This document shows, piece by piece, positions 1-25,029 of a stretch of 32,000 bases of DNA. The stretch is from assembly GCA_963718045.1 (NCBI GenBank), contig OY970350.1, forward strand, positions 660,001 to 692,000, written 5' to 3'. Under the pieces are notes generated by a model that saw nothing but the letters and a program-made list of their open reading frames with translations, was not told where the DNA came from and searched no databases. This DNA comes from Candidatus Saccharimonadota bacterium. GTDB lineage: Bacteria; Patescibacteriota; Saccharimonadia; Saccharimonadales; UBA4665. The position numbers and the translations under genes are program-made. The first letter of the stretch is position 1. Each line of letters begins with the position of its first letter.

Positions 1-427
1 GTGTACAGGTTTTACCGACTACCTTCATTTTTATTTCACCAAAATCTACATTGCGTGTAGCCATTAGGGCTTCCAGGCTTTGGGTTATATCTCGTCTTAC
101 AGCCTCTTCACTGTTACCATCATGCTCAACAAATAGACCCTTGCCAGTTTTCTTGTCTTGCACCCAACCAATTCCCGCCCAAGCTTCAACGTTTGGCCTA
201 TCTACCCTTGATTCAGCCATGACTACATATAGTCTGTCACCCCACTTGCCTGATAGCCTGTCTAGTTTGCTGTCATCATCATGTATAACTATCTTCGTTT
301 TAGGAGGTACTACAGAACTAAGTTTTATAATGTTAAAGTTGGCGACGCCGGCTGCATTCAGAGCTGCATCAAAAGCAGATAGTTTTGTAGGACCCGTGCC
401 TAAACCGCTTGCTAAATGTATAATCAT
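1..427 (-). CDS. pdaD: pyruvoyl-dependent arginine decarboxylase, N-terminal part (C-terminus runs off the window)
   Basis: My own minus-strand translation from the ATG at 427-425 gives MIIHLASGLGTGPTKLSAFDAALNAAGVANFNIIKLSSVVPPKTKIV...WAGIGWV...GLFVEHDG. This has the PvlArgDC family pattern (TKLSAFDAAL, LSS self-cleavage motif followed by V/I-PP). An AGAAGG SD lies 11 nt upstream. It is absent from the ORF track because it is open at the window edge. Confidence 0.8.
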   Translation of the reverse strand, partial: MIIHLASGLGTGPTKLSAFDAALNAAGVANFNIIKLSSVVPPKTKIVIHDDDSKLDRLSGKWGDRLYVVMAESRVDRPNVEAWAGIGWVQDKKTGKGLFVEHDGNSEEAVRRDITQSLEALMATRNVDFGEIKMKVVGKTCT

Positions 428-451
428 ATGACTTTTTGCCTTCTTTTAGTT

Positions 452-496
452 AAAAGCACTCGCCCGTAAAGTCTCCCTTACAAAACGAGTGCTTTT
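452..496. other. perfect 11-bp inverted repeat (aaaagcactcg / cgagtgctttt) with a 23-nt loop, between the divergent pdaD and response-regulator starts
   Basis: Read directly: left arm 452-462, right arm 486-496. The GC core GCACTCG is flanked by an A-run and a T-run, so it looks like an intrinsic terminator on both strands. It sits 25 nt upstream of the pdaD ATG. Confidence 0.5.
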
Positions 497-547
497 ATTC
501 TTCTAATGTACTAAAATACAGTAGTAGAATAATATTAAACTAGTAAT

Positions 548-940
548 ATGTCAAGCATAAAAGGAACCAAGAAGATAAAGGTAGCGGTTATAGAGGATAA
601 CATCCCTATACAAGAACTCTATACATTTAAGCTGAAGCATGAGGGTTTTGAGGTTCGAGTTGCTGGAGATGGTGAAGTTGGCCTCACTATGGTCAAAAAA
701 TTCATGCCCGATTTAATACTGCTTGATCTTCTGATGCCCATCAAAAGCGGCGAGGATATGCTGGAAGATCTTCGCAAGTTTGATTGGGCTAAAGAAATAA
801 AGGTTATTATCCTAACCAACATATCTAAGGATGAAGCACCGTCTAAATTAAGATTACTTAACGTCGACAGATACATCGTTAAAGCACATTACACACCGCA
901 GCAAGTTATAGATATTGTCAGAGAAGTGATGGCCAGTTGA
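548..940 (+). CDS. stand-alone response regulator receiver domain (CheY-like)
   Basis: 130 aa. Motifs: KVAVIEDN, phospho-acceptor context DLILLDLLMP, VIILTN, conserved Lys in IVKAHYTP. No output domain. Confidence 0.85.
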   Translation: MSSIKGTKKIKVAVIEDNIPIQELYTFKLKHEGFEVRVAGDGEVGLTMVKKFMPDLILLDLLMPIKSGEDMLEDLRKFDWAKEIKVIILTNISKDEAPSKLRLLNVDRYIVKAHYTPQQVIDIVREVMAS

Positions 941-976
941 ATTGTAAATAAAGTAAAGTTGTCTTAGGATTAAATT

Positions 977-1351
977 ATGTCTAAAAATGTGAAGATAGCT
1001 ATTATTGAGGATGACCAGGCTATAAGCCAGATGTATAGGTTTAAGTTTGAGGCAGAAGGCTATCAGGTTGAAACAGCTGGAGATGGCAAGATTGGCCTTG
1101 AACTTGCCCAGTCTATGAAGCCGGATATTATACTGCTTGATCTTATGATGCCAGAGATGAATGGTGATCAGATGCTGGCTAAACTAAGAGCTACTCCCCG
1201 GGGCAAGCATATTAAGGTTATTATCCTAACCAATATGGGTGAGCAAGAGATTCCTGACTCTGTTAAAAAATTGGGTGTTAGCGGTGTTATCTTAAAAGCA
1301 GATATGACGCCAAGACAAGTTGCCGATACTGTAAAGAAGCATCTTGGGTAG
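977..1351 (+). CDS. stand-alone response regulator receiver domain (paralogue of 548..940)
   Basis: 124 aa. Motifs: KIAIIEDD, DIILLDLMMPEMNG, VIILTN, LKADMTP. It shares a 20-nt identical stretch with the upstream paralogue (800-819 = 1214-1233). Confidence 0.85.
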   Translation: MSKNVKIAIIEDDQAISQMYRFKFEAEGYQVETAGDGKIGLELAQSMKPDIILLDLMMPEMNGDQMLAKLRATPRGKHIKVIILTNMGEQEIPDSVKKLGVSGVILKADMTPRQVADTVKKHLG

Positions 1352-1384
1352 TAAAGATCTAATTAACTGGCATAATGAACTAAA

Positions 1385-2695
1385 ATGAAAATTGCTATTT
1401 TAGGTTATGGCAGCCAAGGTCAATCTGTCTATGAGTACTATAAAAATACAGATAACACTTTAACTGTTTGCGATAAAGACACAGCTACTGACCTGCCTGA
1501 AGGCGTTGACAGCCAGATCGGTGAAGCATACTTAGATGGACTGGATAAGTTTGATCTTATCTTCAGGGGTCCTGGTGTTCATCCGACTGAAATTGTAAAA
1601 GCCAATGGCAAGGCAATACTAGGTAAAGTAACCTCTAACACCAACGAGTTTTTAAGGCTCTGCCCTACAAAGAATGTTGTTGGCGTAACTGGCACAAAAG
1701 GAAAGGGAACTACTTCAACCTTAATCGCTAAAATGCTTGAAGAAAGCGGACTTAGAGTTCATCTTGGCGGCAATATTGGTACACCACCTCTCGATTTACT
1801 GGCTGAAGATATTAAAGAAGAGGACTGGGTAGTTCTAGAACTCGCTAATTACCAGTTAATTGATCTTAAATATTCAATCCATATTGCTGTTTGTTTAATG
1901 GTCGAGCCGGAACACTTAGATTGGCATGCTGATGAAAATGAATACTATGAGGCTAAGGCTAAGTTATTTGAATGTCAGACTAAGGATGATCTGGCCACAT
2001 ATTATGGCCTTAACGCTAACTCTAAAAGGATTGCTTCTGCCTCGCCTGGTAAATTAATACCATACTTTGAGTCACCAGGAGCTTTAGTTGACGGTCCAAA
2101 TATTGTTGTTGACGGCACGCCGGTTATTAGGACTTCCGAGATAAAACTAATTGGCAAGCATAATCTGCAAAATGTCTGTGCCGCTGTTACAGCTGTCTGG
2201 CAAATAAATCAGGATACTGAGCCAATAGCTGACGTTTTAAGAGAATTCAGCGGACTGCCTTTTAGGCTGGAAATTATTAGGGAAGTTAAGGGTGTTAAAT
2301 ATGTAGATGATTCATTTGCTTCAGCGCCACCAGCCTCTGTTGCTGCGATTGAAGCCATTAAAGGACCGAAGATTTTAATATTAGGCGGTAAGGATAGGGG
2401 CCTTGATCTTAAAGATTTAGTGAAGGCAATATCTGGTAATGCTAAAGACATTAAAAAGATATTAATTATTGGTAATTCAAGCGAAAGACTGGCTAAGGCA
2501 TTATCTGGGGTTAACTTTACTAACTATGAAGTGCTTGGTTCGTCTAAATCAATGAAAGAGATAGTCGATATGGCAAGCAAAACAGCCAGCGCTTCGGACA
2601 GCGTTATTCTCTCCCCTGGTTTCCCCAGTTTCGATATGTTTAAGAACTTTGAAGACCGGGGACTTAAGTTTAATGATGCGGTAGATAATCTATGA
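1385..2695 (+). CDS. murD: UDP-N-acetylmuramoyl-L-alanine--glutamate ligase (MurD family)
   Basis: 436 aa. It has an N-terminal Rossmann-like KIAILGYGSQG, a Mur-ligase P-loop GVTGTKGKGTTS, HNLQNVCAAV, PFRLE...GVKYVDDS and ILILGGKDRGLD, in the order and length typical of MurD. The DDSFASAPPAS segment diverges from the usual NDSKATN. Confidence 0.8.
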   Translation: MKIAILGYGSQGQSVYEYYKNTDNTLTVCDKDTATDLPEGVDSQIGEAYLDGLDKFDLIFRGPGVHPTEIVKANGKAILGKVTSNTNEFLRLCPTKNVVGVTGTKGKGTTSTLIAKMLEESGLRVHLGGNIGTPPLDLLAEDIKEEDWVVLELANYQLIDLKYSIHIAVCLMVEPEHLDWHADENEYYEAKAKLFECQTKDDLATYYGLNANSKRIASASPGKLIPYFESPGALVDGPNIVVDGTPVIRTSEIKLIGKHNLQNVCAAVTAVWQINQDTEPIADVLREFSGLPFRLEIIREVKGVKYVDDSFASAPPASVAAIEAIKGPKILILGGKDRGLDLKDLVKAISGNAKDIKKILIIGNSSERLAKALSGVNFTNYEVLGSSKSMKEIVDMASKTASASDSVILSPGFPSFDMFKNFEDRGLKFNDAVDNL

Positions 2696-3993
2696 ACACC
2701 AATAAGACGTTTATTTTTAAGTATTACATCTTTGATGAAACGTTAAAGACACTCGAACTTAGGTATGGCTATCCTGACGGCCAGGAATTCAGCGAAAACT
2801 ACTACTTTGATTTTACATTCGCCGACTATGACAATGAGCAGCTAAACAGGGCTTTTGAAAACCTGCTGATACTCGCCGGTGTTTCATATTTTAAAGCTTA
2901 TGCCCCTAAGAACATCGAGCTGTCACTGGGCAATCTAACGGAAGATGAAGCAGCTTTTTATAGCCAAACGTATGAAAAAGGTTTGGGTGAGTTTTGGTAT
3001 GTTAACGGGCTTGATCCAAAGAGTAAAGTTAACTTCCCTATCAGTTCTAAGCATAAGGATGTGCTTGCTGGTGGTAAACATGAGGGCATGGTAGTCGGCA
3101 TTGGCGGCGGTAAGGATTCATTAGTGACGGTTGAAGCTCTCAAAAAAACAAATGTAGATTTTATGACCTGGAGTTTAAGCCATCGCCAGCAGTTAGAACC
3201 ATTGGTTAAAAAAATGGGCACTAAACACGCCTTTGTAGAAAGGATTATTGACCCTAAGTTACTCGAGCTTAATTCAATGGGAGCCTTAAACGGGCATGTG
3301 CCTATTTCAGCTATCATATCTTCAGTTGGTGTAATTGTTGCCATCTTAACAGGCAGACGTGACGTAGTTGTCAGCAACGAACAAACGGCTAACGAACCGA
3401 CTTTAGAATATAGGGGAGTTAGTATTAACCACCAGTATTCTAAGAGCCAGCAGTTTGAAAGGGATTATCAAAGATTCTTAAGAAATAGTTATGGTGAGTC
3501 TATCAGGTACTACTCGTTCTTAAGACCAATGAGCGAGCTTTATGTTGCCGAAGTATTTGCCTTAATTGGTTTCAGTAAATATAAGGGTGTGTTTAGTTCA
3601 TGCAACCGAGCCTATACTCTTCATTCAGACCATATGTTTTGGTGCGGTGAATGTCCTAAATGTGCTTTTGTCTTTATGATTTTAACGCCATTTATTGAAA
3701 GATCGGCTCTCGAGAGTTTGTGGCACGGTCAGAATCTTTTACTAGAGCCGAGTTTAGAGGAAACATATAGGCAGCTTCTTGGAATCAGTGGTAATAAGCC
3801 GCTTGATTGTGTCGGTGAAATTAAAGAAGCCAGAGCGGCCATGAAGCTCTGTTTTAAGAAGTATCCAGGTCTTAGTAAGAAATATACCTTTGACCTTCCG
3901 GCTAGCTATGACTACCGAACACTTAATACAAGTGAAATGCCGAAAGATATTAAACCGATCTTTGATAACTTTATTAAAACCTGGCAAAAATAA
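2692..3993 (+). CDS. PP-loop (adenine-nucleotide alpha-hydrolase-like) ATPase with a Cys cluster; candidate MurL-like epimerase partner of MurD
   Basis: 433 aa. The start overlaps the murD stop (ATGA at 2692-2695). It carries a PP-loop-like motif VVGIGGGKDSLVT (consensus SGGxDS) and a Cys cluster SSCN...WCGECPKC. The functional call is inference. Confidence 0.45.
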   Translation: MNTNKTFIFKYYIFDETLKTLELRYGYPDGQEFSENYYFDFTFADYDNEQLNRAFENLLILAGVSYFKAYAPKNIELSLGNLTEDEAAFYSQTYEKGLGEFWYVNGLDPKSKVNFPISSKHKDVLAGGKHEGMVVGIGGGKDSLVTVEALKKTNVDFMTWSLSHRQQLEPLVKKMGTKHAFVERIIDPKLLELNSMGALNGHVPISAIISSVGVIVAILTGRRDVVVSNEQTANEPTLEYRGVSINHQYSKSQQFERDYQRFLRNSYGESIRYYSFLRPMSELYVAEVFALIGFSKYKGVFSSCNRAYTLHSDHMFWCGECPKCAFVFMILTPFIERSALESLWHGQNLLLEPSLEETYRQLLGISGNKPLDCVGEIKEARAAMKLCFKKYPGLSKKYTFDLPASYDYRTLNTSEMPKDIKPIFDNFIKTWQK

Positions 3994-3996
3994 GAG

Positions 3997-4800
3997 TTAT
4001 TTCTTGCGTTTAGCAGCCGTAATAACATTTTCAAACAGGGCACAAACAGTTAGGGGGCCAACACCGCCTTTTTTAGGGGTTATTGTTAAATCTAAGCGTT
4101 CATAAAGTGAATCGTCTACGTCACCGACTGTCTTACCGTCTTCACTGGCTACACCGGCATCAACAACCACTGCCCCTTCTTTGATCATATCGGGGTATAA
4201 AATAGCCGGACTGCCGGTAGCTGTTATGATGACATCCGCTTTTAATGTTTCAGATTTTAGATCGGATGTTTCTCGGTCAGCTAGACTAACGTTGATGCCG
4301 CTATCCTTAAGCATTCTCTCTAGCGGCTGGCCGACTAGTTTACCCCGCCCTATTAGAAGAACTTCTTTGCCGATTAGATCTATGCTATAGCCGGCGAGCA
4401 GCCACATGATAGCCATAGGCGTAGCTGGTTCAAGGGTAGCTTTCCTGCCTAGGGCATCGACATCTTTACTGGAATCAACCAGGTTAACCAGTTCATCTGT
4501 TTTTTCAGGGTTTTCAATGGGCAGCTGGATTATTATGCCGTTAACTGACTCATCTTTATTCAGCTCTCTAAGTTTAGCTGGTACTTCCGCTTGAGAAATG
4601 TTATACACATCGACCATAACACCAATGTCCTGGCCATACTTCTGCTTAAGTTTAACGTAGACATTAATAACCGGATGGTCAATGGTTAGGATTATGGCTA
4701 GTTTAGGTCTTATATGATGAGTTGAATAAAGAGTATTCACCTCACTGGCCTGTCTTTTTTTAATAAACCCGGCTAGTTCTTGGCCGTTAAGTAATTTCAT
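3997..4800 (-). CDS. folD: bifunctional methylenetetrahydrofolate dehydrogenase / methenyl-THF cyclohydrolase
   Basis: 267 aa. Motifs: MKLLNGQELA..., PKLAIILT, VNGIIIQLP, LLIGRGKLVGQPL, PKKGGVGPLTVCALFENV. This is the classic FolD pattern. Confidence 0.9.
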   Translation of the reverse strand: MKLLNGQELAGFIKKRQASEVNTLYSTHHIRPKLAIILTIDHPVINVYVKLKQKYGQDIGVMVDVYNISQAEVPAKLRELNKDESVNGIIIQLPIENPEKTDELVNLVDSSKDVDALGRKATLEPATPMAIMWLLAGYSIDLIGKEVLLIGRGKLVGQPLERMLKDSGINVSLADRETSDLKSETLKADVIITATGSPAILYPDMIKEGAVVVDAGVASEDGKTVGDVDDSLYERLDLTITPKKGGVGPLTVCALFENVITAAKRKK

Positions 4801-4867
4801 GACTGTTATTATACCTGAGATGAAGTTATGGACAGTAGCTGGACTTTAAAGCTATGATGTCAAAGAG

Positions 4868-5602
4868 ATGAAACTAAGTGTCAGATGGATAGTTATAGCT
4901 GTCTTTTTTATATCTTCCCTGCTCTCAATTTCTAGTTCTGCCTTTGCCGATAACCAAACGCTCAATGATCTATCCTGGCCTAACTGCAACGAAAAGATAA
5001 CCAGCTTAAGCAGCAGCGGCATAGTAGGTATTAATGACGGATTGGATTTTAGTCACAATCCTTGTTTAGCTCAGGAAAGCCTGCTCTTCCATAACAACTA
5101 CTCATTGTATTTAAACACTGGCTATCCGGGTAAAAGTTATGCCCTTATGTTTAAGGGCAGTCCAAAACACTGCCAGATAGATAATTTAAACTGCCTGGCA
5201 TACAACTTTGGCTATAATGATGCTGTTTATTCCATGAAGTATGCCTGGAGCCAGGATAGCCATAGTTTTACCTGGTGGCTTGATGTTGAAACTGAAAACA
5301 GCTGGACGAATAGTTTTAAACAGAACCGAGAGGCTTTAATCGGCATGACTAATGCCATTCATAAATATGCCTTTATGCCGACTATTGGCTTTTATTCCTA
5401 CCCAGGTCAATGGCAATCAATAACAAAGGACTGGATAAATTTACTGCCTGCTTGGGTTGCTACAGCATCTGATTCCAAGCAAGCAGCTGCTAATTACTGC
5501 GTTAACAGCTTTAACGGCGGACCTACATGGTTGACTCAATATACTAGATACTTAGATATGAATTATAATTGTTTGGATCTAAGTGTTAATATTTTAAGAT
5601 AA
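4868..5602 (+). CDS. secreted protein, GH25-like / DUF1906-like putative muramidase
   Basis: 244 aa. Signal peptide MKLSVRWIVIAVFFISSLLSISSSAFA|DN. Ordered motifs resemble GH25 lysozymes: DLSWPN, WWLDVETE, IGFYSYPGQW, LPAWVA, TWLTQYT...DMNY. Confidence 0.4.
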   Translation: MKLSVRWIVIAVFFISSLLSISSSAFADNQTLNDLSWPNCNEKITSLSSSGIVGINDGLDFSHNPCLAQESLLFHNNYSLYLNTGYPGKSYALMFKGSPKHCQIDNLNCLAYNFGYNDAVYSMKYAWSQDSHSFTWWLDVETENSWTNSFKQNREALIGMTNAIHKYAFMPTIGFYSYPGQWQSITKDWINLLPAWVATASDSKQAAANYCVNSFNGGPTWLTQYTRYLDMNYNCLDLSVNILR

Positions 5603-5648
5603 GTTGATCTGGTAAATAGGTCATTTTTTTGTTAGAGTAACAAATCAA

Positions 5649-5725
5649 GGGCCATTAGCTCAGCTGGTTAGAGCACCTGCCTCTTAAGCAGGGTGTCCAG
5701 GGTTCAAGTCCCTGATGGCCCTCCA
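5649..5725 (+). tRNA. tRNA-Lys (anticodon CTT), CCA encoded
   Basis: Folded by hand: acceptor GGGCCAT/ATGGCCC, D stem GCTC/GAGC, anticodon stem CCTGC/GCAGG with loop CTCTTAA, T arm CAGGG-TTCAAGT-CCCTG, discriminator T, CCA at 5723-5725. Confidence 0.9.
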
Positions 5726-5779
5726 AGCATAAGCATCATTACTTGACCATTATATCGCTAGATGTGATAGTATGTACCA

Positions 5780-6529
5780 ATGAATGAGAGGACACCTAAA
5801 GAGTTAAAATCCGAGATTGTTCCTGCCCATGAAATTAATCTAGCCCGCCTCAGTAGTGAAGAGGCTCTACGAGCTTATCTACAAGAACAAACCCATTTAT
5901 TTAGATCTAAAGTTCTAGATAAATTAGCTAAGCATGGTGTCACAGAAGGTGCAGGTTGGGCTATCTTTACCCTTACAAGTCAAGAAGAAGACGTTCTAGG
6001 AAATAGTGTTATGACATTAATGCCGGATAAAGAAGTTCTCGTGTTATACTTGCCTCATCGTAACTCAAGAACAATGGATGGTCATCCAATACCTAACATA
6101 AGGATCATTACAAACGAGCCTTACTGTTCATGTGATAGAGCAACTCAGTATCTTAGTAGAGATTTTACGCTAGATCATGAAGACGACGTTCAGTATTTTG
6201 TCGACGCACAAGATATGTATGATTTTACTGACGAGTCCAAGAAAAAACCTCTTAGTGAAGAAAATCCACCAGGAAGGAATGAAACATTAACGCCACTTTT
6301 CTGGGCTAATGAGGATGGCAACCTGTGCATTTCGAGACCGATAAGCTACTTCACTGAAGCAACGGGTATTCATCTGACAAATCCGGATGATGGCACACCG
6401 ATAGAGAGCTACCCTTTTGGCTTGTACACCTCTCCTTTTGATGTACTCTATGCTCTAGAACAAGGAGAAGAACTGTTTGCTATGATAGAACGTTTAGATC
6501 CGGTACTTATTTCATCGGATGCTCTTTGA
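5780..6529 (+). CDS. hypothetical acidic protein (no recognisable domain)
   Basis: 249-aa ORF with no competing frame. TGaTAGTAT (5765-5773) lies 6 nt upstream of the ATG. Confidence 0.55.
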   Translation: MNERTPKELKSEIVPAHEINLARLSSEEALRAYLQEQTHLFRSKVLDKLAKHGVTEGAGWAIFTLTSQEEDVLGNSVMTLMPDKEVLVLYLPHRNSRTMDGHPIPNIRIITNEPYCSCDRATQYLSRDFTLDHEDDVQYFVDAQDMYDFTDESKKKPLSEENPPGRNETLTPLFWANEDGNLCISRPISYFTEATGIHLTNPDDGTPIESYPFGLYTSPFDVLYALEQGEELFAMIERLDPVLISSDAL

Positions 6530-14520: not shown

Positions 14521-14991
14521 TTAACTTCGTTCAAACACCTCAAAATAAAAGGTTTGGTTATTTTCCTTGTTCGGACCATTTGAGGATTTTAAATTGAAAT
14601 TATTAAAGTTCGGGAAAAACTGGTCACAGTTAAAATCTGATTCGATAGTTGTTAGGTAAAGTTCCTGTGCTCTTCTTATTATCTGGGCATATATACTTTC
14701 ACCACCTATTACCCATAAATCCTCTTTAAAGTTATTGAGAAATGACTCTAAGTCGTTAACCAGGACTACGCCGCTTGGCAGTTTAAGTAAAGAATGTGAA
14801 ACAACGTAATTAGTTCTGCCGATAAGTGGGCCGTTGAGCGAATTAAAGGTCGTATGGCCCATAAGAATATTGCCGCCAAATTTAAGTGTCTGAGTTTTAA
14901 AATATGTCCTGTCCGACGGCAAGTCCCAAGGTATTTGGCCACCGCTTGCAATACCACGCTTAGTGTCTATAGCGGCAATTAGTCTTATCAC
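14521..14991 (-). CDS. folA: dihydrofolate reductase
   Basis: 156 aa with a GTG start overlapping the folC stop (GTGA). Motifs: IAAIDTKRGIASGGQIPWDLPSDRTYFKTQT, VIGGESIY. Confidence 0.85.
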   Translation of the reverse strand: MIRLIAAIDTKRGIASGGQIPWDLPSDRTYFKTQTLKFGGNILMGHTTFNSLNGPLIGRTNYVVSHSLLKLPSGVVLVNDLESFLNNFKEDLWVIGGESIYAQIIRRAQELYLTTIESDFNCDQFFPNFNNFNLKSSNGPNKENNQTFYFEVFERS

Positions 14992-16268
14992 TTATTAAGA
15001 CTTTCTCTAATTTGAGCAATGAGATAAAAGGAGCCAGTAATTATGACGTTTTTAGTCTTAGATTTTAGCAGCTTTTTAAAGGCTTCTAGATTATCTGTTA
15101 TAGCGCTAACGTTACCAGCATCTATCTTTTTTAAGGCTTGGGTAATATCTTCTGGGGAGCATGATTCTACCGGCAGGTCTTGGGAAGTTTTAAAAGTAGT
15201 AACAATAATTTCAGAGGCAATATCTTTAATGAGCGGTAATGCTTCAGTATAAGCTTTGTCATTTTTGAAGGCTAAAAGGACAGCTGCCTTTTGACCAGTG
15301 AACATGTGTTTGTAGCTCGATATAAAGGCAGCCATTTTTTGGTAGTTATGGGCACCATCCATTATTACCCGATGTCCTTTTTTATAAGATATATCCATTC
15401 GGGCAGGTACTTGGATTTTTTGAGAGATAGTAATTTCCCGGTTACTTAGATCTTTAATCGAGTCTCTGTCCCTAACAAAGCGGTAGGTGCAGTAAGCAAG
15501 CAGCCAGTTTCGTTTTTGAAAGTCTGGCAATTTATTGAAATAGCCTGTGTTGCCATATAGAGCTTTTTCTTTTTCTTCGCTGGTTAGATAAATCTTGGCA
15601 TCATGTTCTTTGACTGACTTATTAATTACGCTCATTATTTCTTCATTTTGTTTATACATAATTAGTGAGTTATGTTTCTGAACAATGCCTACTTTTTGAG
15701 AAGTAATTTCTTTTAAGGTGTGCCCTAGGATATGCATGTGGTCAAATCCTATGTCAGTTATGACGCAGACTTTGTCTTCCCTTCTTATTACATTGGTGGC
15801 ATCAAATAGACCGCCCATACCTGTTTCGACAACTACATAATCTAGTCCTAGTTTGGCAAACAGCCAGATTGAAAAAGAATAGATAAGTTCAAAATATGAC
15901 GGCTTTATTCCGCTACTATCTACAAGGTCCAAAAACTCTGCTAGTTCCTGGCAAAAGACATTGTCTTCAATTGGTTGACTGTTTATCTGGGCTCTTTCAG
16001 TTACTTTATCTATATGAGGCGAGACAGTTAAGCCAACGTTATATCCAGCTAGTGTTAGTAGTTTTGATACATAATAGGCTGTTGATGTTTTACCGCTTGT
16101 ACCGGCGATATGGATAGCCCTGATCTTATTTTCTGGGTTACCTAAATAGGCCATTAAGGGTTCTATCCTGTCAAAAACAGTATCTTTGCCAGTTAACTGT
16201 TTTACCAGGGGTACATAGGGCCTTAAGGCTAGTTCAGCATCGCCTAAAGTATTAAGTGTTCTCTTCAT
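14988..16268 (-). CDS. folC: folylpolyglutamate synthase / dihydrofolate synthase (Mur-ligase family)
   Basis: 426 aa. Motifs: P-loop IHIAGTSGKTST, VVETGMGG, DGAHN. AGAGGAGC SD upstream. Confidence 0.8.
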   Translation of the reverse strand: MKRTLNTLGDAELALRPYVPLVKQLTGKDTVFDRIEPLMAYLGNPENKIRAIHIAGTSGKTSTAYYVSKLLTLAGYNVGLTVSPHIDKVTERAQINSQPIEDNVFCQELAEFLDLVDSSGIKPSYFELIYSFSIWLFAKLGLDYVVVETGMGGLFDATNVIRREDKVCVITDIGFDHMHILGHTLKEITSQKVGIVQKHNSLIMYKQNEEIMSVINKSVKEHDAKIYLTSEEKEKALYGNTGYFNKLPDFQKRNWLLAYCTYRFVRDRDSIKDLSNREITISQKIQVPARMDISYKKGHRVIMDGAHNYQKMAAFISSYKHMFTGQKAAVLLAFKNDKAYTEALPLIKDIASEIIVTTFKTSQDLPVESCSPEDITQALKKIDAGNVSAITDNLEAFKKLLKSKTKNVIITGSFYLIAQIRESLNK

Positions 16269-21060: not shown

Positions 21061-22095
21061 ATGCCTTCTATGAACCTACTGCGGGATGTGAGCCTAGCCA
21101 AATACTCAACTATGGGGTTGGGTGGTAAAGCTAGTTACGTTGTATCTATCGATAAGCGTGATGATCTCATTGAAGCCCTTAACTTTGCCGGTCAAAATAA
21201 GCTGCCAGTCTTAATGATTGGCGAAGGCAGTAACATTATTTGGCGGGATGAGGGATATAAGGGCCTGCTGCTTATTAATAACATCAGGGGTTTTGATATA
21301 GAAAACGAAGACGATGAAGGCTCAGATATTGTAATCGGGGCAGGTGAAAATTGGGATCTGGCCATTGATAGGGCTGTTAGTTTGGGCTTAAGCGGTATCG
21401 AGTGTTTAAGTTTAATTCCCGGCAGTGCCGGCGCTACACCTGTTCAGAATGTCGGTGCTTACGGCCAGGAGATATCTGAGACGTTAGTCAGTCTTGAAGC
21501 TTACGATAACAAAAACAAGATCTTTCTAACGATGCTAAATAAGGACTGCAATTTTAGTTATAGAGACAGCTGCTTTAGAAAAGAGCCAGGACGTTACTTT
21601 ATATTATCTATCCGCTTACATCTTAAAAAAGACCAGATCAAACCACCGTTATATAAAGGGCTCGAGCAGTATTTAAATAGCCGCAGCATATCTGATTTGT
21701 CGCCTTATAGTATCAGGCAGGCAGTTATTAATATCAGGCAGGCTAAACTGCCTGACCCGACTAAGATACGTAACTGCGGATCTTTCTTTAAAAATCCAAT
21801 AGTTCCAAAAGGGAAGTATGAGGAGATTCATAGTCACTACGAAGATGCACCTGGCTGGGAAACAAGTGACGGACAAATGAAGCTTTCGGCAGCCTGGCTA
21901 ATTGAGAAAGCTGGATTTAAAGATTACTTTGATAACCAAACGGGAATGGCCACTTGGAAAGAACAGCCACTTGTCTTAGTTAATCAAAGCGCCAAGAGTA
22001 CTAATGACCTACTCCGTTTTAAGGATAAGATTGTTAGTGTAACTCGGGATATGTTTGGCGTCGAGCTTGACCAGGAACCGCAGCTATTGCCTTAA
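21061..22095 (+). CDS. murB: UDP-N-acetylenolpyruvoylglucosamine reductase
   Basis: 344 aa. Motifs: YSTMGLGGKASYVV, GEGSNI, PGSAGATPVQNVGAYGQE, SYRDSCF, GSFFKNP. A consensus TATAAT at 21057-21062 overlaps the first ATG, so the ATG at 21070 (MNLLRDV) may be the real, leaderless start. Confidence 0.85.
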   Translation: MPSMNLLRDVSLAKYSTMGLGGKASYVVSIDKRDDLIEALNFAGQNKLPVLMIGEGSNIIWRDEGYKGLLLINNIRGFDIENEDDEGSDIVIGAGENWDLAIDRAVSLGLSGIECLSLIPGSAGATPVQNVGAYGQEISETLVSLEAYDNKNKIFLTMLNKDCNFSYRDSCFRKEPGRYFILSIRLHLKKDQIKPPLYKGLEQYLNSRSISDLSPYSIRQAVINIRQAKLPDPTKIRNCGSFFKNPIVPKGKYEEIHSHYEDAPGWETSDGQMKLSAAWLIEKAGFKDYFDNQTGMATWKEQPLVLVNQSAKSTNDLLRFKDKIVSVTRDMFGVELDQEPQLLP

Positions 22096-23351
22096 GATGG
22101 CAGTGGATATTTCTTGGTAAATTCTTTGATTTCAGCCCGTATTTTAGCTAACTTCTTGTCGTTGTTACTAGCAGTTATGGCCTGATCTATCCACTCAGCT
22201 ACCTGGTCCATCTCTGTCTCTTTGAGGCCGCGGGTTGTAAGAGCGGGTGTGCCTAAACGGATACCGCTTGGATCAAATGGTGGTCTTGGGTCATAAGGTA
22301 CTGTGTTCTTGTTGACTGTAATACCGGCCTTACCTAAAGCAGCTTCCGCTTCCCTGCCGGTTATCTTTTTATTGGTCATGTCGATTAGCAGCAAATGGTT
22401 GTCTGTACCGCCTGTGACTAGGTTATAGTCTTTATTTACCAGGTTGGTTGCTAGACGCTTGGCGTTTTTAACTATCTGCTGGCCATATTCTTTGAAGGCT
22501 GGCTGAGCCGCTTCTTTTAGGGCAACAGCAATAGCTGCTGTTTGGTGGTTATGCGGTCCGCCCTGAAGACCAGGGATTATTGCCCTGTCTATTAGGGTCG
22601 GCAAGTTCTCTTTTGTTCTTTCAACTGCCTTTAATGGATTGGAAGGATTGCCGTTACAAAGTATTAAAGCTCCCCGCGGACCTCGCAGTGTCTTATGGGT
22701 AGTAGTCATAATGACGTCTGCAATTCCGGCCGGCGATGGATGGGCACCAGCTACCACTAGGCCAGAGATGTGGGATATATCAGCAATCAGCCAGGCATTA
22801 CAAAGATCGGCAATCTGCCTAAGCTTTTTCCAGTCAAAGATTCTTGGGTAGGCTGTTGCGCCAACAAATATTAGTTTAGGCTTTTCTTTTGTGACCATAT
22901 CGGCCATTGCTTCGTAGTCCAAATAGCCGTCCTGCCCGGTCTTATACTGTACCGAGTTATATATTCTTCCGGAAAAGTTAACTTTTAGCCCATGGGTCAT
23001 GTGGCCGCCAAAATACAAGGCCATTCCCATAATGGTGTCTCCCGGATTGACTAGTGCAAAATATATAGCCTGGTTAGCTGGTGATCCGGAGTAGGCCTGA
23101 ACATTGGCATGGTCAACGCCAAACAGTGCCGTTGCTCTGTCACGGGCTAGATTTTCAATTTTGTCGACAAATTCGCAGCCACCATAATATCTTTTACCTG
23201 GATAGCCTTCAGAGTACTTATCGGTTAGTCTTGATCCCAGAGCTTTTAGAACTTCAGCAGAAGTATGGTTTTCACTAGGAATCATTTCCAGACCTTCACT
23301 CTGTCTCTTTACTTCTTCGTCAATTAGTTTAAATACTGCCTGGTCTGTCAT
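22092..23351 (-). CDS. glyA: serine hydroxymethyltransferase
   Basis: 419 aa. Motifs: GLEMIPSENHTS, GYPGKRYYGGCE, TTTHKTLRGPRG (PLP-binding Lys). Strong AAAGAGGGGAG SD. Confidence 0.95.
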   Translation of the reverse strand: MTDQAVFKLIDEEVKRQSEGLEMIPSENHTSAEVLKALGSRLTDKYSEGYPGKRYYGGCEFVDKIENLARDRATALFGVDHANVQAYSGSPANQAIYFALVNPGDTIMGMALYFGGHMTHGLKVNFSGRIYNSVQYKTGQDGYLDYEAMADMVTKEKPKLIFVGATAYPRIFDWKKLRQIADLCNAWLIADISHISGLVVAGAHPSPAGIADVIMTTTHKTLRGPRGALILCNGNPSNPLKAVERTKENLPTLIDRAIIPGLQGGPHNHQTAAIAVALKEAAQPAFKEYGQQIVKNAKRLATNLVNKDYNLVTGGTDNHLLLIDMTNKKITGREAEAALGKAGITVNKNTVPYDPRPPFDPSGIRLGTPALTTRGLKETEMDQVAEWIDQAITASNNDKKLAKIRAEIKEFTKKYPLPS

Positions 23352-23505: not shown

Positions 23506-25029
23506 ATGCCATCATCAACTGAGAAAATTGGTAGCCTCATTGCTCAAATACGACAAGAACGAGGCTTATCACAGGCAGAATTCGCCAGACGGCTCGGCAC
23601 CAGCCAATCGGCTGTAAACCGTATGGAACGGGGTAACCAGAACCTGAGTATTGAAACTTTAGGCCGTATTAGTGATGTCTTAAACAAACAGCTTATTAGT
23701 TTGAGCGGCGAAGCTGTTAACCTTAGAATTGAAGGCGGCCACAAGCTAAAGGGCGAGATAACCTTAAAGACCTCCAAGAATGCAGCCGTTGGACTGCTGT
23801 GTGCCAGTTTACTTAACGAAGGCGTAACAAAGTTTAAGGCTTTCCCCCGAATTGAAGAAGTCTATCGGATGATTGAAGTGCTGGAAAGTATCGGTGTAAC
23901 AGTTAGATGGTTTGAAGGCAATGATATTGAAATTAGACGGCCTAAGAAATTAAATCTGGAAAATATTGATATTAATGCCGCTACGCAAACGAGAAGTGTG
24001 CTTATGTTCATTGGCCCGCTAATACATGAGTTTACTAAATTTAAGATTCCTTATGCCGGTGGCTGTAAGCTTGGTACTAGAACCATTCAGCCCCATCTAT
24101 TTGCTATGGAGGAATTCGGCGTAAGTATTGTAGCCAGCAACAGTAACTACCACATTGACGTAAAGAAAAAACCAATCGATAGAATAACTCTTTATGAACA
24201 AAGCGATACTGTTGCGGAGAATATTGTAATGGCCGCCTCTAAATTTAGTACCGAAACAGTTATTGAATTTGCCAGTGCTAATTATGCTGTCCAGGAAGTC
24301 TGTTTATTCTTAAGAAAATTAGGTGTCAGCGTAAACGGTATTGGTACAACCACTTTAAGGGTAAAAGGTATGACTTCTATTAAAAAGAACATTGTCTATG
24401 CTCCTAGTGAGGATCCAATTGAGGCAATGTTCTTTACAGCAGCTGCCGTTACAACGAATTCCAAGATTACCATTAAAAGGGTGCCGATTGAGTTTATGTC
24501 AGTTGAGCTACTTAAGCTTGAAAAGATGGGGCTTAAAGTAACCAGAAGTGACAGATATAAGGCAAACAATGGTTACACTGATTTAGTTGATCTGACTATA
24601 TTCCCTCATGACGGTGAACTTAAGGCTTTATCGGATAAAATCCATTCACTGCCCTACCCGGGACTTAATGCCGATAACCTGCCCTACTTTGTGCCTATTG
24701 CCGCCTGTGCTAAGGGAAGAACCTTAATTCATGACTGGATGTATGATAATCGGGCTTTATATTACACTGAACTTACTAAGATTGGCGCTCAGATAGAACT
24801 AGCTGATCCTCATAGACTTTATGTAATTGGCCCAACTAAGTTTAGACCGGCTGATGTTGTCTGTCCGCCTGCCTTAAGGCCAGCCTCACTGCTGCTTATT
24901 GGCATGTTAGCAGCCGACGGCATTAGCATGCTTAGAAATGTCTATACCATAAACCGTGGTTATGAGGATCTGGCTGCCAGATTGAATGTTTTAGGCGCTA
25001 AGGTAACTGTCGTTCACGATATCAGTTAG
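23506..25029 (+). CDS. murA: fusion protein: N-terminal XRE-type HTH + UDP-N-acetylglucosamine 1-carboxyvinyltransferase
   Basis: 507 aa. Aa 1-65 form the HTH: IRQERGLSQAEFARRLGTSQSAVNRMERGNQNLSIETL. The remainder aligns by eye with MurA: LRIEGGHKLKGEITLKTSKNAA, AGGCKLGTRTIQPH (active-site Cys retained), INRGYEDLAARLNVLGAKV. Confidence 0.8.
   Translation: MPSSTEKIGSLIAQIRQERGLSQAEFARRLGTSQSAVNRMERGNQNLSIETLGRISDVLNKQLISLSGEAVNLRIEGGHKLKGEITLKTSKNAAVGLLCASLLNEGVTKFKAFPRIEEVYRMIEVLESIGVTVRWFEGNDIEIRRPKKLNLENIDINAATQTRSVLMFIGPLIHEFTKFKIPYAGGCKLGTRTIQPHLFAMEEFGVSIVASNSNYHIDVKKKPIDRITLYEQSDTVAENIVMAASKFSTETVIEFASANYAVQEVCLFLRKLGVSVNGIGTTTLRVKGMTSIKKNIVYAPSEDPIEAMFFTAAAVTTNSKITIKRVPIEFMSVELLKLEKMGLKVTRSDRYKANNGYTDLVDLTIFPHDGELKALSDKIHSLPYPGLNADNLPYFVPIAACAKGRTLIHDWMYDNRALYYTELTKIGAQIELADPHRLYVIGPTKFRPADVVCPPALRPASLLLIGMLAADGISMLRNVYTINRGYEDLAARLNVLGAKVTVVHDIS

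Follow-up and report, generated by a model that had tools for sequence, protein, structure and literature searches.

The DNA analysed here is a stretch of 32,000 nucleotides with a G+C content of 40.6% (hereafter, the window), taken from contig OY970350.1 of a Candidatus Saccharimonadota assembly (GCA_963718045.1, positions 660,001 to 692,000). Close to its start, two genes encode a MurD-type ligase, which would add glutamate to the peptidoglycan precursor UDP-MurNAc-L-Ala (UDP-MurNAc being UDP-N-acetylmuramic acid), together with a homolog of the epimerase MurL. A bypass of glutamate racemase by such a pair, MurD2 and MurL, was described in 2017. An earlier note on this DNA, made from the letters alone, had proposed this route for the two genes and had pointed to the overlap between the stop codon of the first and the start codon of the second, which is present as it described (Table 1). 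Our analysis indicates that the pair very probably encodes the MurD2/MurL route, in which L-glutamate (L-Glu) is ligated first and then epimerised from L to D on the precursor.

Table 1. Features of the gene pair and of selected neighbouring genes, in window coordinates.
Feature	Coordinates	Strand	Remarks
Response regulator, stand-alone receiver domain	548-940	+	5' of murD2
Response regulator, stand-alone receiver domain	977-1351	+	ends 33 nt upstream of murD2
murD2-type gene	1385..2695	+	436 aa; predicted UDP-MurNAc-L-Ala--glutamate ligase, predicted L-Glu specific
E176 codon	1910..1912	+	counterpart of D182 in E. coli MurD and of E197 in X. oryzae MurD2, by alignment
F311 codon, inside DDSFASAPPAS	2315..2317	+	equivalent to E. 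coli MurD K319, by alignment
R338 codon	2396..2398	+	counterpart of K348 in E. coli MurD and of R358 in X. oryzae MurD2, by alignment
P414-S415-F416 codons	2624..2632	+	equivalent to E. coli A414-S415-L416 and MurD2 P433/F435, by alignment
ATGA overlap of murD2 stop and murL start (translational coupling)	2692..2695	+	ATG over TGA; 4-nt overlap
murL gene	2692..3993	+	433 aa; MurL family and Pfam domain matches, AlphaFold2 model
PP-loop variant GGGKDS, G138-S143 (within GIGGGKDS)	3103..3120	+	predicted ATP pyrophosphate-binding loop; 95-100% conserved
Four-Cys cluster C304 ... C318-x2-C321-x2-C324	3601..3663	+	predicted QueC-like Zn site; each Cys at least 98% conserved
WCGECPKC, C318/C321/C324	3643-3663	+	read from sequence
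K369-P-x2-C373-V-G-x3-E379	3796..3828	+	candidate acid/base region for epimerisation; role inferred only
murB	21061-22095
murA	23506-25029	+	507 aa

The probable murD2-murL gene pair and its relatives

Judged by sequence, the downstream open reading frame (ORF) is a full-length MurL homolog. It matched the NCBIfam MurL model NF041275 with 328.6 bits and E=4.7e-98, residues 3-386 of its 433 aligning with model positions 6-392 of 447, and precomputed Pfam matches on this exact protein comprise PF26299 (MurL_N) and PF26298 (MurL_epimerase_C). A BLASTP alignment with the MurL of Arenimonas aestuarii (Xanthomonadales; P0352), which itself reaches 800.9 bits on NF041275 and so lies above the cut-off of that model, extended over the full length at 37% identity (E=1e-81). 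These matches bear out the MurL identity that the earlier note had left to a homology check. A further Pfam match, to PapG_C (E=0.14), was judged spurious.

Conservation was counted over 126 MurL family representatives clustered at 50% identity. In the window protein, G138-S143, R184, N200-G-H202, E230, N246-H-Q248, K251, S303-C-N305, W317-C318, C321, K323-C324, P370, C373 and E379 all fall on columns that are 95-100% conserved and agree with them. Within the K369-E379 motif, conservation reaches 100% at P370, C373, V374 and E379 and 97-98% at K369 and G375. The GIGGGKDS and CxxCxxC motifs singled out by the earlier note are both present and are invariant or nearly so across these representatives. 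Like characterised MurL, the window ORF combines MurL_N and MurL_epimerase_C with full-length homology and a MurD-type ligase next door, and it shares the motifs GGGKDS, NGHxP, NHQxSK, SCN, WCxxCxKC and KPxxCVG. It differs in its lower score on NF041275 (328.6 against the 700 bits of the cut-off), in the ligase-first gene order and in the ATGA overlap. The hosts differ as well, those of characterised MurL being proteobacterial or actinobacterial and that of the window belonging to an episymbiont lineage of Patescibacteria, known here from sequence.

The exact MurL protein is recorded on an ENA contig of 832,233 bp (ERZ25039519 contig_22346) and in an NCBI assembly, and the closest homologs of both proteins are found in metagenome-assembled genomes of Candidatus Saccharimonadales/Saccharibacteria. 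Eleven related Saccharimonadia loci, with MurL proteins only 52-58% identical to that of the window, all have the order ligase then MurL and all keep the xTATGA stop/start junction; at this level of divergence, and with the near-invariant motifs, the arrangement is not attributable to chance. Among close homologs, some JGI/IMG entries are already labelled with the enzyme name of MurL, and many other MurL homologs at NCBI are named "hypothetical" or "endonuclease domain-containing protein". The latter label looks like a propagated misannotation. In the parcubacterium Gr01-1014_18, a MurB fused to a DUF559 endonuclease-like domain is encoded near the murL-murD2 pair (L007 9696-11243).

We surveyed MurL more widely using one genome per species and found at least 589 MurL-encoding stretches. 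In the CPR (candidate phyla radiation), the best 80 of these come from Saccharibacteria, Peribacteria/Peregrinibacteria, Gracilibacteria, Parcubacteria, Moranbacteria, Uhrbacteria, Woesebacteria and Falkowbacteria; the other hosts among the same 80 are Alphaproteobacteria, Lysobacterales, Micromonospora, Acidimicrobiales, Chloroflexia, Lachnospiraceae and Bacteroidota. The family as a whole comprises at least 2414 clusters at 50% identity (E<=1e-3), or 1155 at E<=1e-30. A MurD-type gene is adjacent to or fused with MurL in 80 of 82 loci from many phyla, the two exceptions being short contigs. Nearly all loci outside Saccharimonadia have MurL before the ligase, ten of them as a single reading frame, and the Micromonospora pair is divergent; among independent representatives, fusion proteins occur in both orders, MurD-MurL and MurL-MurD. 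The reversed, translationally coupled gene order is specific to Saccharimonadia. Together, the clade-wide ATGA overlap and the natural fusions elsewhere suggest equimolar co-production of MurD2 and MurL, possibly with hand-over of the intermediate.

Two members of this collection are unusual. One contig labelled Candidatus Saccharibacteria (L074) encodes a distant MurL type, 37% identical, that precedes the ligase in one frame; either the bin is mislabelled or the group has independently acquired a second version. A 591-residue protein (P0122) combines a MurL-like part (query 87-428) with a Zeta-toxin kinase domain at its C terminus (PF06414, E=1.5e-31), a fusion that may be genuine or may stem from faulty gene calling. 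The substrate that Zeta toxins phosphorylate, UDP-GlcNAc, is also a precursor of peptidoglycan.

Published reviews place MurL in Xanthomonadales, in Micromonosporaceae and in a small number of Alphaproteobacteria; they also list orthologs of low similarity from cyanobacteria, one fungus and one amoeba (PMC8788868 and another review). No link of MurL to Saccharibacteria or other CPR bacteria was found in the literature searched.

Residues around the glutamate site of the ligase

The upstream protein is a three-domain Mur ligase, with Pfam matches to Mur_ligase_M and Mur_ligase_C and a match to MurD-like_N under its cut-off. The residues of the Mur ligase fold that serve ATP, Mg and carbamyl-Lys are intact: K107, N130, E152, H177 and K191 align with K115, N138, E157, H183 and K198 of Escherichia coli MurD (for E. 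coli positions, the published numbering equals the gene numbering minus 1).

Near the glutamate site, MurD2 of Xanthomonas oryzae differs from E. coli MurD by D182E, K348R, A414P and L416F (Ogasawara and Dairi, PMC8788868). The double substitution E197D/R358K converts X. oryzae MurD2 to a D-Glu ligase, and K319T gives E. coli MurD the ability to accept L-Glu (PMC8788868). The window ligase has the MurD2 residues E and R at the specificity-switching positions 182 and 348, P and F at 414 and 416 and, like MurD2, a hydrophobic residue at 319, although it carries F and S instead of I and T at 319 and 321. We compared it with 61 near-full-length ligases encoded beside MurL, including those of Stenotrophomonas maltophilia, Dyella, Rhodanobacter, Pseudoxanthomonas and Micromonospora; with four canonical MurD proteins of solved structure; and with its own 120 nearest homologs, 55-97% identical (Table 2).

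Table 2. Residues found at five positions of the ligases (E. coli MurD numbering).
Ligase set	182	319	348	414	416
61 MurL-linked ligases	E 55/61	never K (I45, F10, L5, Y1)	R 61/61	P 49/61	aromatic 58/61
4 canonical MurD	D, D, D, T	K 4/4	K, K, K, R	A 4/4	L, L, F, W
120 nearest homologs	E 120/120	F or Y 120/120	R 116/120	P 60, A 58, S 2	F 120/120

The same E/R/P/F pattern occurs in the MurL-adjacent ligases of the five genera named above. Positions 414 and 416 discriminate less, with A414 present in 12 of the 61 linked ligases and F416 in the MurD of Acinetobacter baumannii. The earlier note had remarked that the ligase departs from the canonical NDSKATN segment. This departure is real, DDSFASAPPAS standing where E. 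coli MurD has NDSKATNVGST, and it is common to the MurL-linked ligases, all 61 of which have I, F, L or Y in place of K319. Loss of this Lys is a correlate that emerged from the present comparison. Taken together, these residues suggest that the window ligase is most likely of the MurD2 type and specific for L-Glu, as the note had supposed.

Predicted fold and chemistry of MurL

The 2018 and 2021 reviews describe MurL as having no recognisable domains (PMC8788868 and another review). A solved MurL structure was not found in the copy of the PDB searched. Searches of PDB sequences with the whole protein, the Cys-rich segment and a family profile were of no use apart from one weak match, in which the family profile placed the MurL GGGKDS opposite SGGKDS, the PP-loop of TtuA (E=0.03). 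An AlphaFold2 model of the window MurL, built from a 95-sequence alignment, had a predicted local distance difference test score (pLDDT) of 94.9 and a predicted TM score (pTM) of 0.94. In this model GGGKDS lies in a turn between a strand (133-136) and a helix (141-151). Foldseek comparison with the PDB returned QatC (E=1.2e-5), QueC (2pg3, E=9.6e-5) and TtuA (E=9e-4), as well as Bacillus subtilis QueC (3bl5_A, E=4.5e-5), for which the TM score normalised to QueC was 0.69 and the root-mean-square deviation 4.5 over 216 columns; lower-ranked matches included Cap9, GMP synthase and MnmA. All matches were PP-loop ATP pyrophosphatases, and the confident model thus points to a QueC-like PP-loop ATP pyrophosphatase fold for the core of MurL.

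The predicted likeness to QueC, QatC, Cap9 and TtuA extends to the PP-loop at the first strand-helix turn and to the Cys-x2-Cys-x2-Cys motif with an upstream Cys. MurL differs from the QueC-like enzymes in having G for S at the start of the PP-loop, an additional domain at the N terminus (about 125 residues) and a helical one at the C terminus (about 100 residues). It also matched no TilS or defence sequence model, and no QueC family appeared in Pfam and NCBIfam scans at E<=1. The earlier note had named grouping with QueC or TilS as an outcome that would speak against MurL; the likeness to QueC that we observe is confined to the level of the fold and so does not count against MurL.

The arrangement of three closely spaced Cys and one upstream Cys is one that we take to correspond to the zinc-site pattern of QueC. 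Recombinant MurL is active with only ATP and Mg2+ added, and the review names no iron-sulfur (Fe-S) cofactor (PMC8788868). The QueC-like Cys pattern and this activity favour zinc over an Fe-S cluster, so that the four-Cys site of MurL probably binds zinc.

These predictions would fit a two-step pathway. A MurD2-type ligase would add L-Glu, rather than D-Glu, onto UDP-MurNAc-L-Ala, with conversion of ATP to ADP and Pi, a step proposed because of the homology and the specificity residues. MurL would then turn the precursor-bound L-Glu into D-Glu. Since the product would be the usual substrate of MurE, neither free D-Glu nor glutamate racemase would be needed. Relative to the E. coli route through MurI and a D-Glu-specific MurD, with which it shares a homologous ligase and the same catalytic core, the MurD2/MurL route inverts stereochemistry once ligation has taken place, with the nucleotide-linked dipeptide as the substrate; it consumes an extra ATP, is unidirectional and requires no free D-Glu pool.

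How MurL might achieve the inversion is suggested by its predicted fold and conserved motifs. QueC activates a carboxylate as an adenylate. MurL would similarly adenylate the alpha-carboxylate of Glu, which would make the C-alpha proton more acidic; invariant residues, for which C373, H202, H247 and K251 are candidates from conservation, would take this proton and give it back on the opposite face, and hydrolysis of the adenylate would render the epimerisation irreversible. AMP-forming carboxylate activation is characterised for QueC and only proposed for MurL, and the outcomes differ, QueC forming an amide or nitrile and MurL carrying out epimerisation and hydrolysis. The adenylating, PP-loop chemistry that the earlier note had read from the motif is supported by the QueC/TtuA-like predicted fold. 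Characterised MurL, known from the X. oryzae, Micromonospora and Salinispora enzymes (PMC8788868), requires ATP and Mg2+, forms AMP and acts only from L to D (PMC8788868 and another review).

Genomic setting, rival explanations and implications

The 32-kb window also encodes MurB and MurA (Table 1), which indicates that the organism makes UDP-MurNAc. The MurA ORF begins with an XRE/HipB-type helix-turn-helix (residues 7-63, E=9.7e-12) in frame with the MurA body (residues 72-503), and is either a regulator-MurA fusion or has a mis-called start. Genes of one-carbon and folate metabolism (folD, dihydrofolate reductase, folC and serine hydroxymethyltransferase; 3997-4800, 14521-16268 and 22092-23351) are scattered among the cell-wall genes. 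The murL stop codon (3991-3993) and the minus-strand folD (ORF end 3997) converge with 3 nt between them, which leaves no space for an intergenic terminator; in 10 of 11 relatives, too, the gene downstream of murL is a convergent folD. Scans of positions 300-5000 for promoters and terminators gave fewer sites than shuffled sequence and were uninformative.

Upstream of murD2 are two stand-alone receiver-domain response regulators, and further upstream a 7TM-HisKA kinase (locus L003 2175-4394). In 10 of 11 Saccharimonadia relatives, the gene immediately upstream of murD2, in the same orientation, is an ortholog of the second response regulator, which suggests a conserved transcription unit or a regulatory link. 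Assembly GCA_052915985.1 has an otherwise identical locus with an insertion after a 244-residue gene (L002 12993-21302; window approximately 5602-5780). It codes for a serine recombinase, a DUF5659 protein, part of an Sf6-type terminase, a helicase and an N6 methyltransferase; the insertion resembles an integrated mobile or phage-like element and is absent from the window.

Several observations weigh against assigning the pair to the MurD2/MurL route. The window MurL, at 328.6 bits, falls far under the 700-bit equivalog cut-off of NF041275. This model was built for and tuned to Xanthomonadales, and other homologs from outside this order that have a MurD-type gene next to them likewise score less than 700 (for example, Parcubacteria P0376 at 494 bits); the sub-cut-off score restricts automatic naming, not homology. 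The ligase is 29% identical to Arenimonas MurD2, no nearer than to E. coli MurD (30%), so that overall similarity does not separate the ligase types; of the comparison between MurD2 and MurD suggested in the earlier note, whole-sequence identity was indecisive and the specificity residues came out MurD2-like. A hidden Markov model of 50 linked ligases from outside Saccharimonadia scored the window ligase at 385.6 bits against 263-347 bits for only four canonical controls (Streptococcus agalactiae 346.6, a partial sequence; E. coli 292; A. baumannii 288; Pseudomonas aeruginosa 263), a margin of just 39 bits over the streptococcal D-Glu MurD. As there is no dedicated MurD2 sequence model, membership rests on signature residues and linkage. 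Among these residues, R at position 348 also occurs in S. agalactiae MurD, and S. mutans MurD has R there yet prefers D-Glu (PMC8788868). The gene order in the window is the reverse of that in nearly all other lineages, and the enzymes with measured MurD2/MurL activity or complementation include none from Patescibacteria. Finally, a functional glutamate racemase has reportedly been described from Candidatus Saccharimonas aalborgensis, according to the title of a 2024 report by Penalver et al.

Some Saccharimonadia may therefore use or keep MurI. Presence of murI would bear on whether MurD2/MurL is the sole route, not on the identity of the gene pair. The corresponding alternative is that the pair works as proposed and the genome also encodes MurI or a D-amino-acid aminotransferase, leaving the pair redundant or in conditional use; control by the receiver-domain gene conserved just upstream of murD2 could be one example of the latter. 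We consider this unlikely. It draws on the title of the racemase report and on the response-regulator ortholog directly 5' of murD2 in most relatives, but no MurI-like or glutamate racemase gene was present in the 32-kb window or in about 7 kb further upstream (locus L003), and the MurD2 pattern in all 120 closest ligase homologs speaks for a primary route throughout the clade. The organisms in which the pathway was defined lack D-Glu-forming genes (PMC8788868 and another review).

A second alternative is that the ligase is an ordinary D-Glu MurD and that the MurL-like protein performs other precursor chemistry, such as carboxylate activation for amidation or ligation, or salvage of a precursor mis-made with L-Glu. 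QueC-type enzymes do use an adenylate for amide or nitrile formation. All named homologs among the 120 nearest are called D-glutamate ligases by NCBI and JGI, and the ligase passes TIGR01087, the D-Glu ligase equivalog, at 311.8 bits (cut-off 211.95; E. coli MurD 437). However, the ligases next to MurL in S. maltophilia (297.8 bits) and Arenimonas (288.6 bits) pass it equally, so this model cannot tell MurD2 from MurD; the S. maltophilia ortholog, SmltD, is treated as MurD2 (PMC8788868). With specificity-switching residues of the L-Glu type and the family-invariant residues of MurL all kept, this alternative appears quite improbable.

That the downstream ORF is instead a QueC-, QatC- or Cap9-type enzyme of queuosine synthesis or anti-phage defence, beside murD by chance, is hardly credible and is effectively refuted by the sequence-model matches and the linkage: although the PDB structures that match it best are those of QatC and QueC and one JGI homolog bears the QueC name, it matches the MurL-specific model and no QueC, TilS or PADLOC model (the empty PADLOC scan leading us to reject a defence system), only about 216 of its 433 residues align with QueC, at 18% identity, and the MurD-type linkage recurs across phyla, fusions included.

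The system in the window is thus the known MurD2/MurL pathway and not a new kind, and its MurL protein is already recognised by domain databases, the ligase partner being publicly named a D-Glu ligase. What goes beyond the literature searched is the host range, the coupled order specific to Saccharimonadia and the QueC-like fold predicted for MurL, which offers a concrete mechanistic frame for this enzyme. Reviews confine MurD2/MurL to a few genera and for this reason regard it as a narrow-spectrum antibiotic target (PMC8788868). The pair, with L-Glu-type ligase residues, is conserved across Saccharimonadia and many other CPR groups, and the published host range, a few genera of proteobacteria and actinobacteria, is far too narrow. 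If the assignment is true, the narrow-spectrum argument would be weakened, hundreds of public D-glutamate ligase names would give the wrong substrate stereochemistry, and revision would be due for metabolic reconstructions in which CPR genomes are rated incapable of supplying D-Glu.

A broader proposal is that MurD2/MurL is the principal, perhaps the only, D-Glu route of Saccharimonadia and of many CPR lineages, which may include Peribacteria, Gracilibacteria, Parcubacteria, Uhrbacteria, Moranbacteria, Woesebacteria and Falkowbacteria, and that MurL is a QueC-derived PP-loop/zinc enzyme that racemises via an alpha-carboxyl adenylate. We regard this proposal as evenly poised between right and wrong. 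To our knowledge, CPR bacteria have been reported mostly to lack racemases. If true, the proposal would account for D-Glu peptidoglycan in genome-reduced bacteria without glutamate racemase, and the assignment of the pair would make the cell-wall synthesis of these racemase-poor, ultrasmall bacteria directly testable with two genes.

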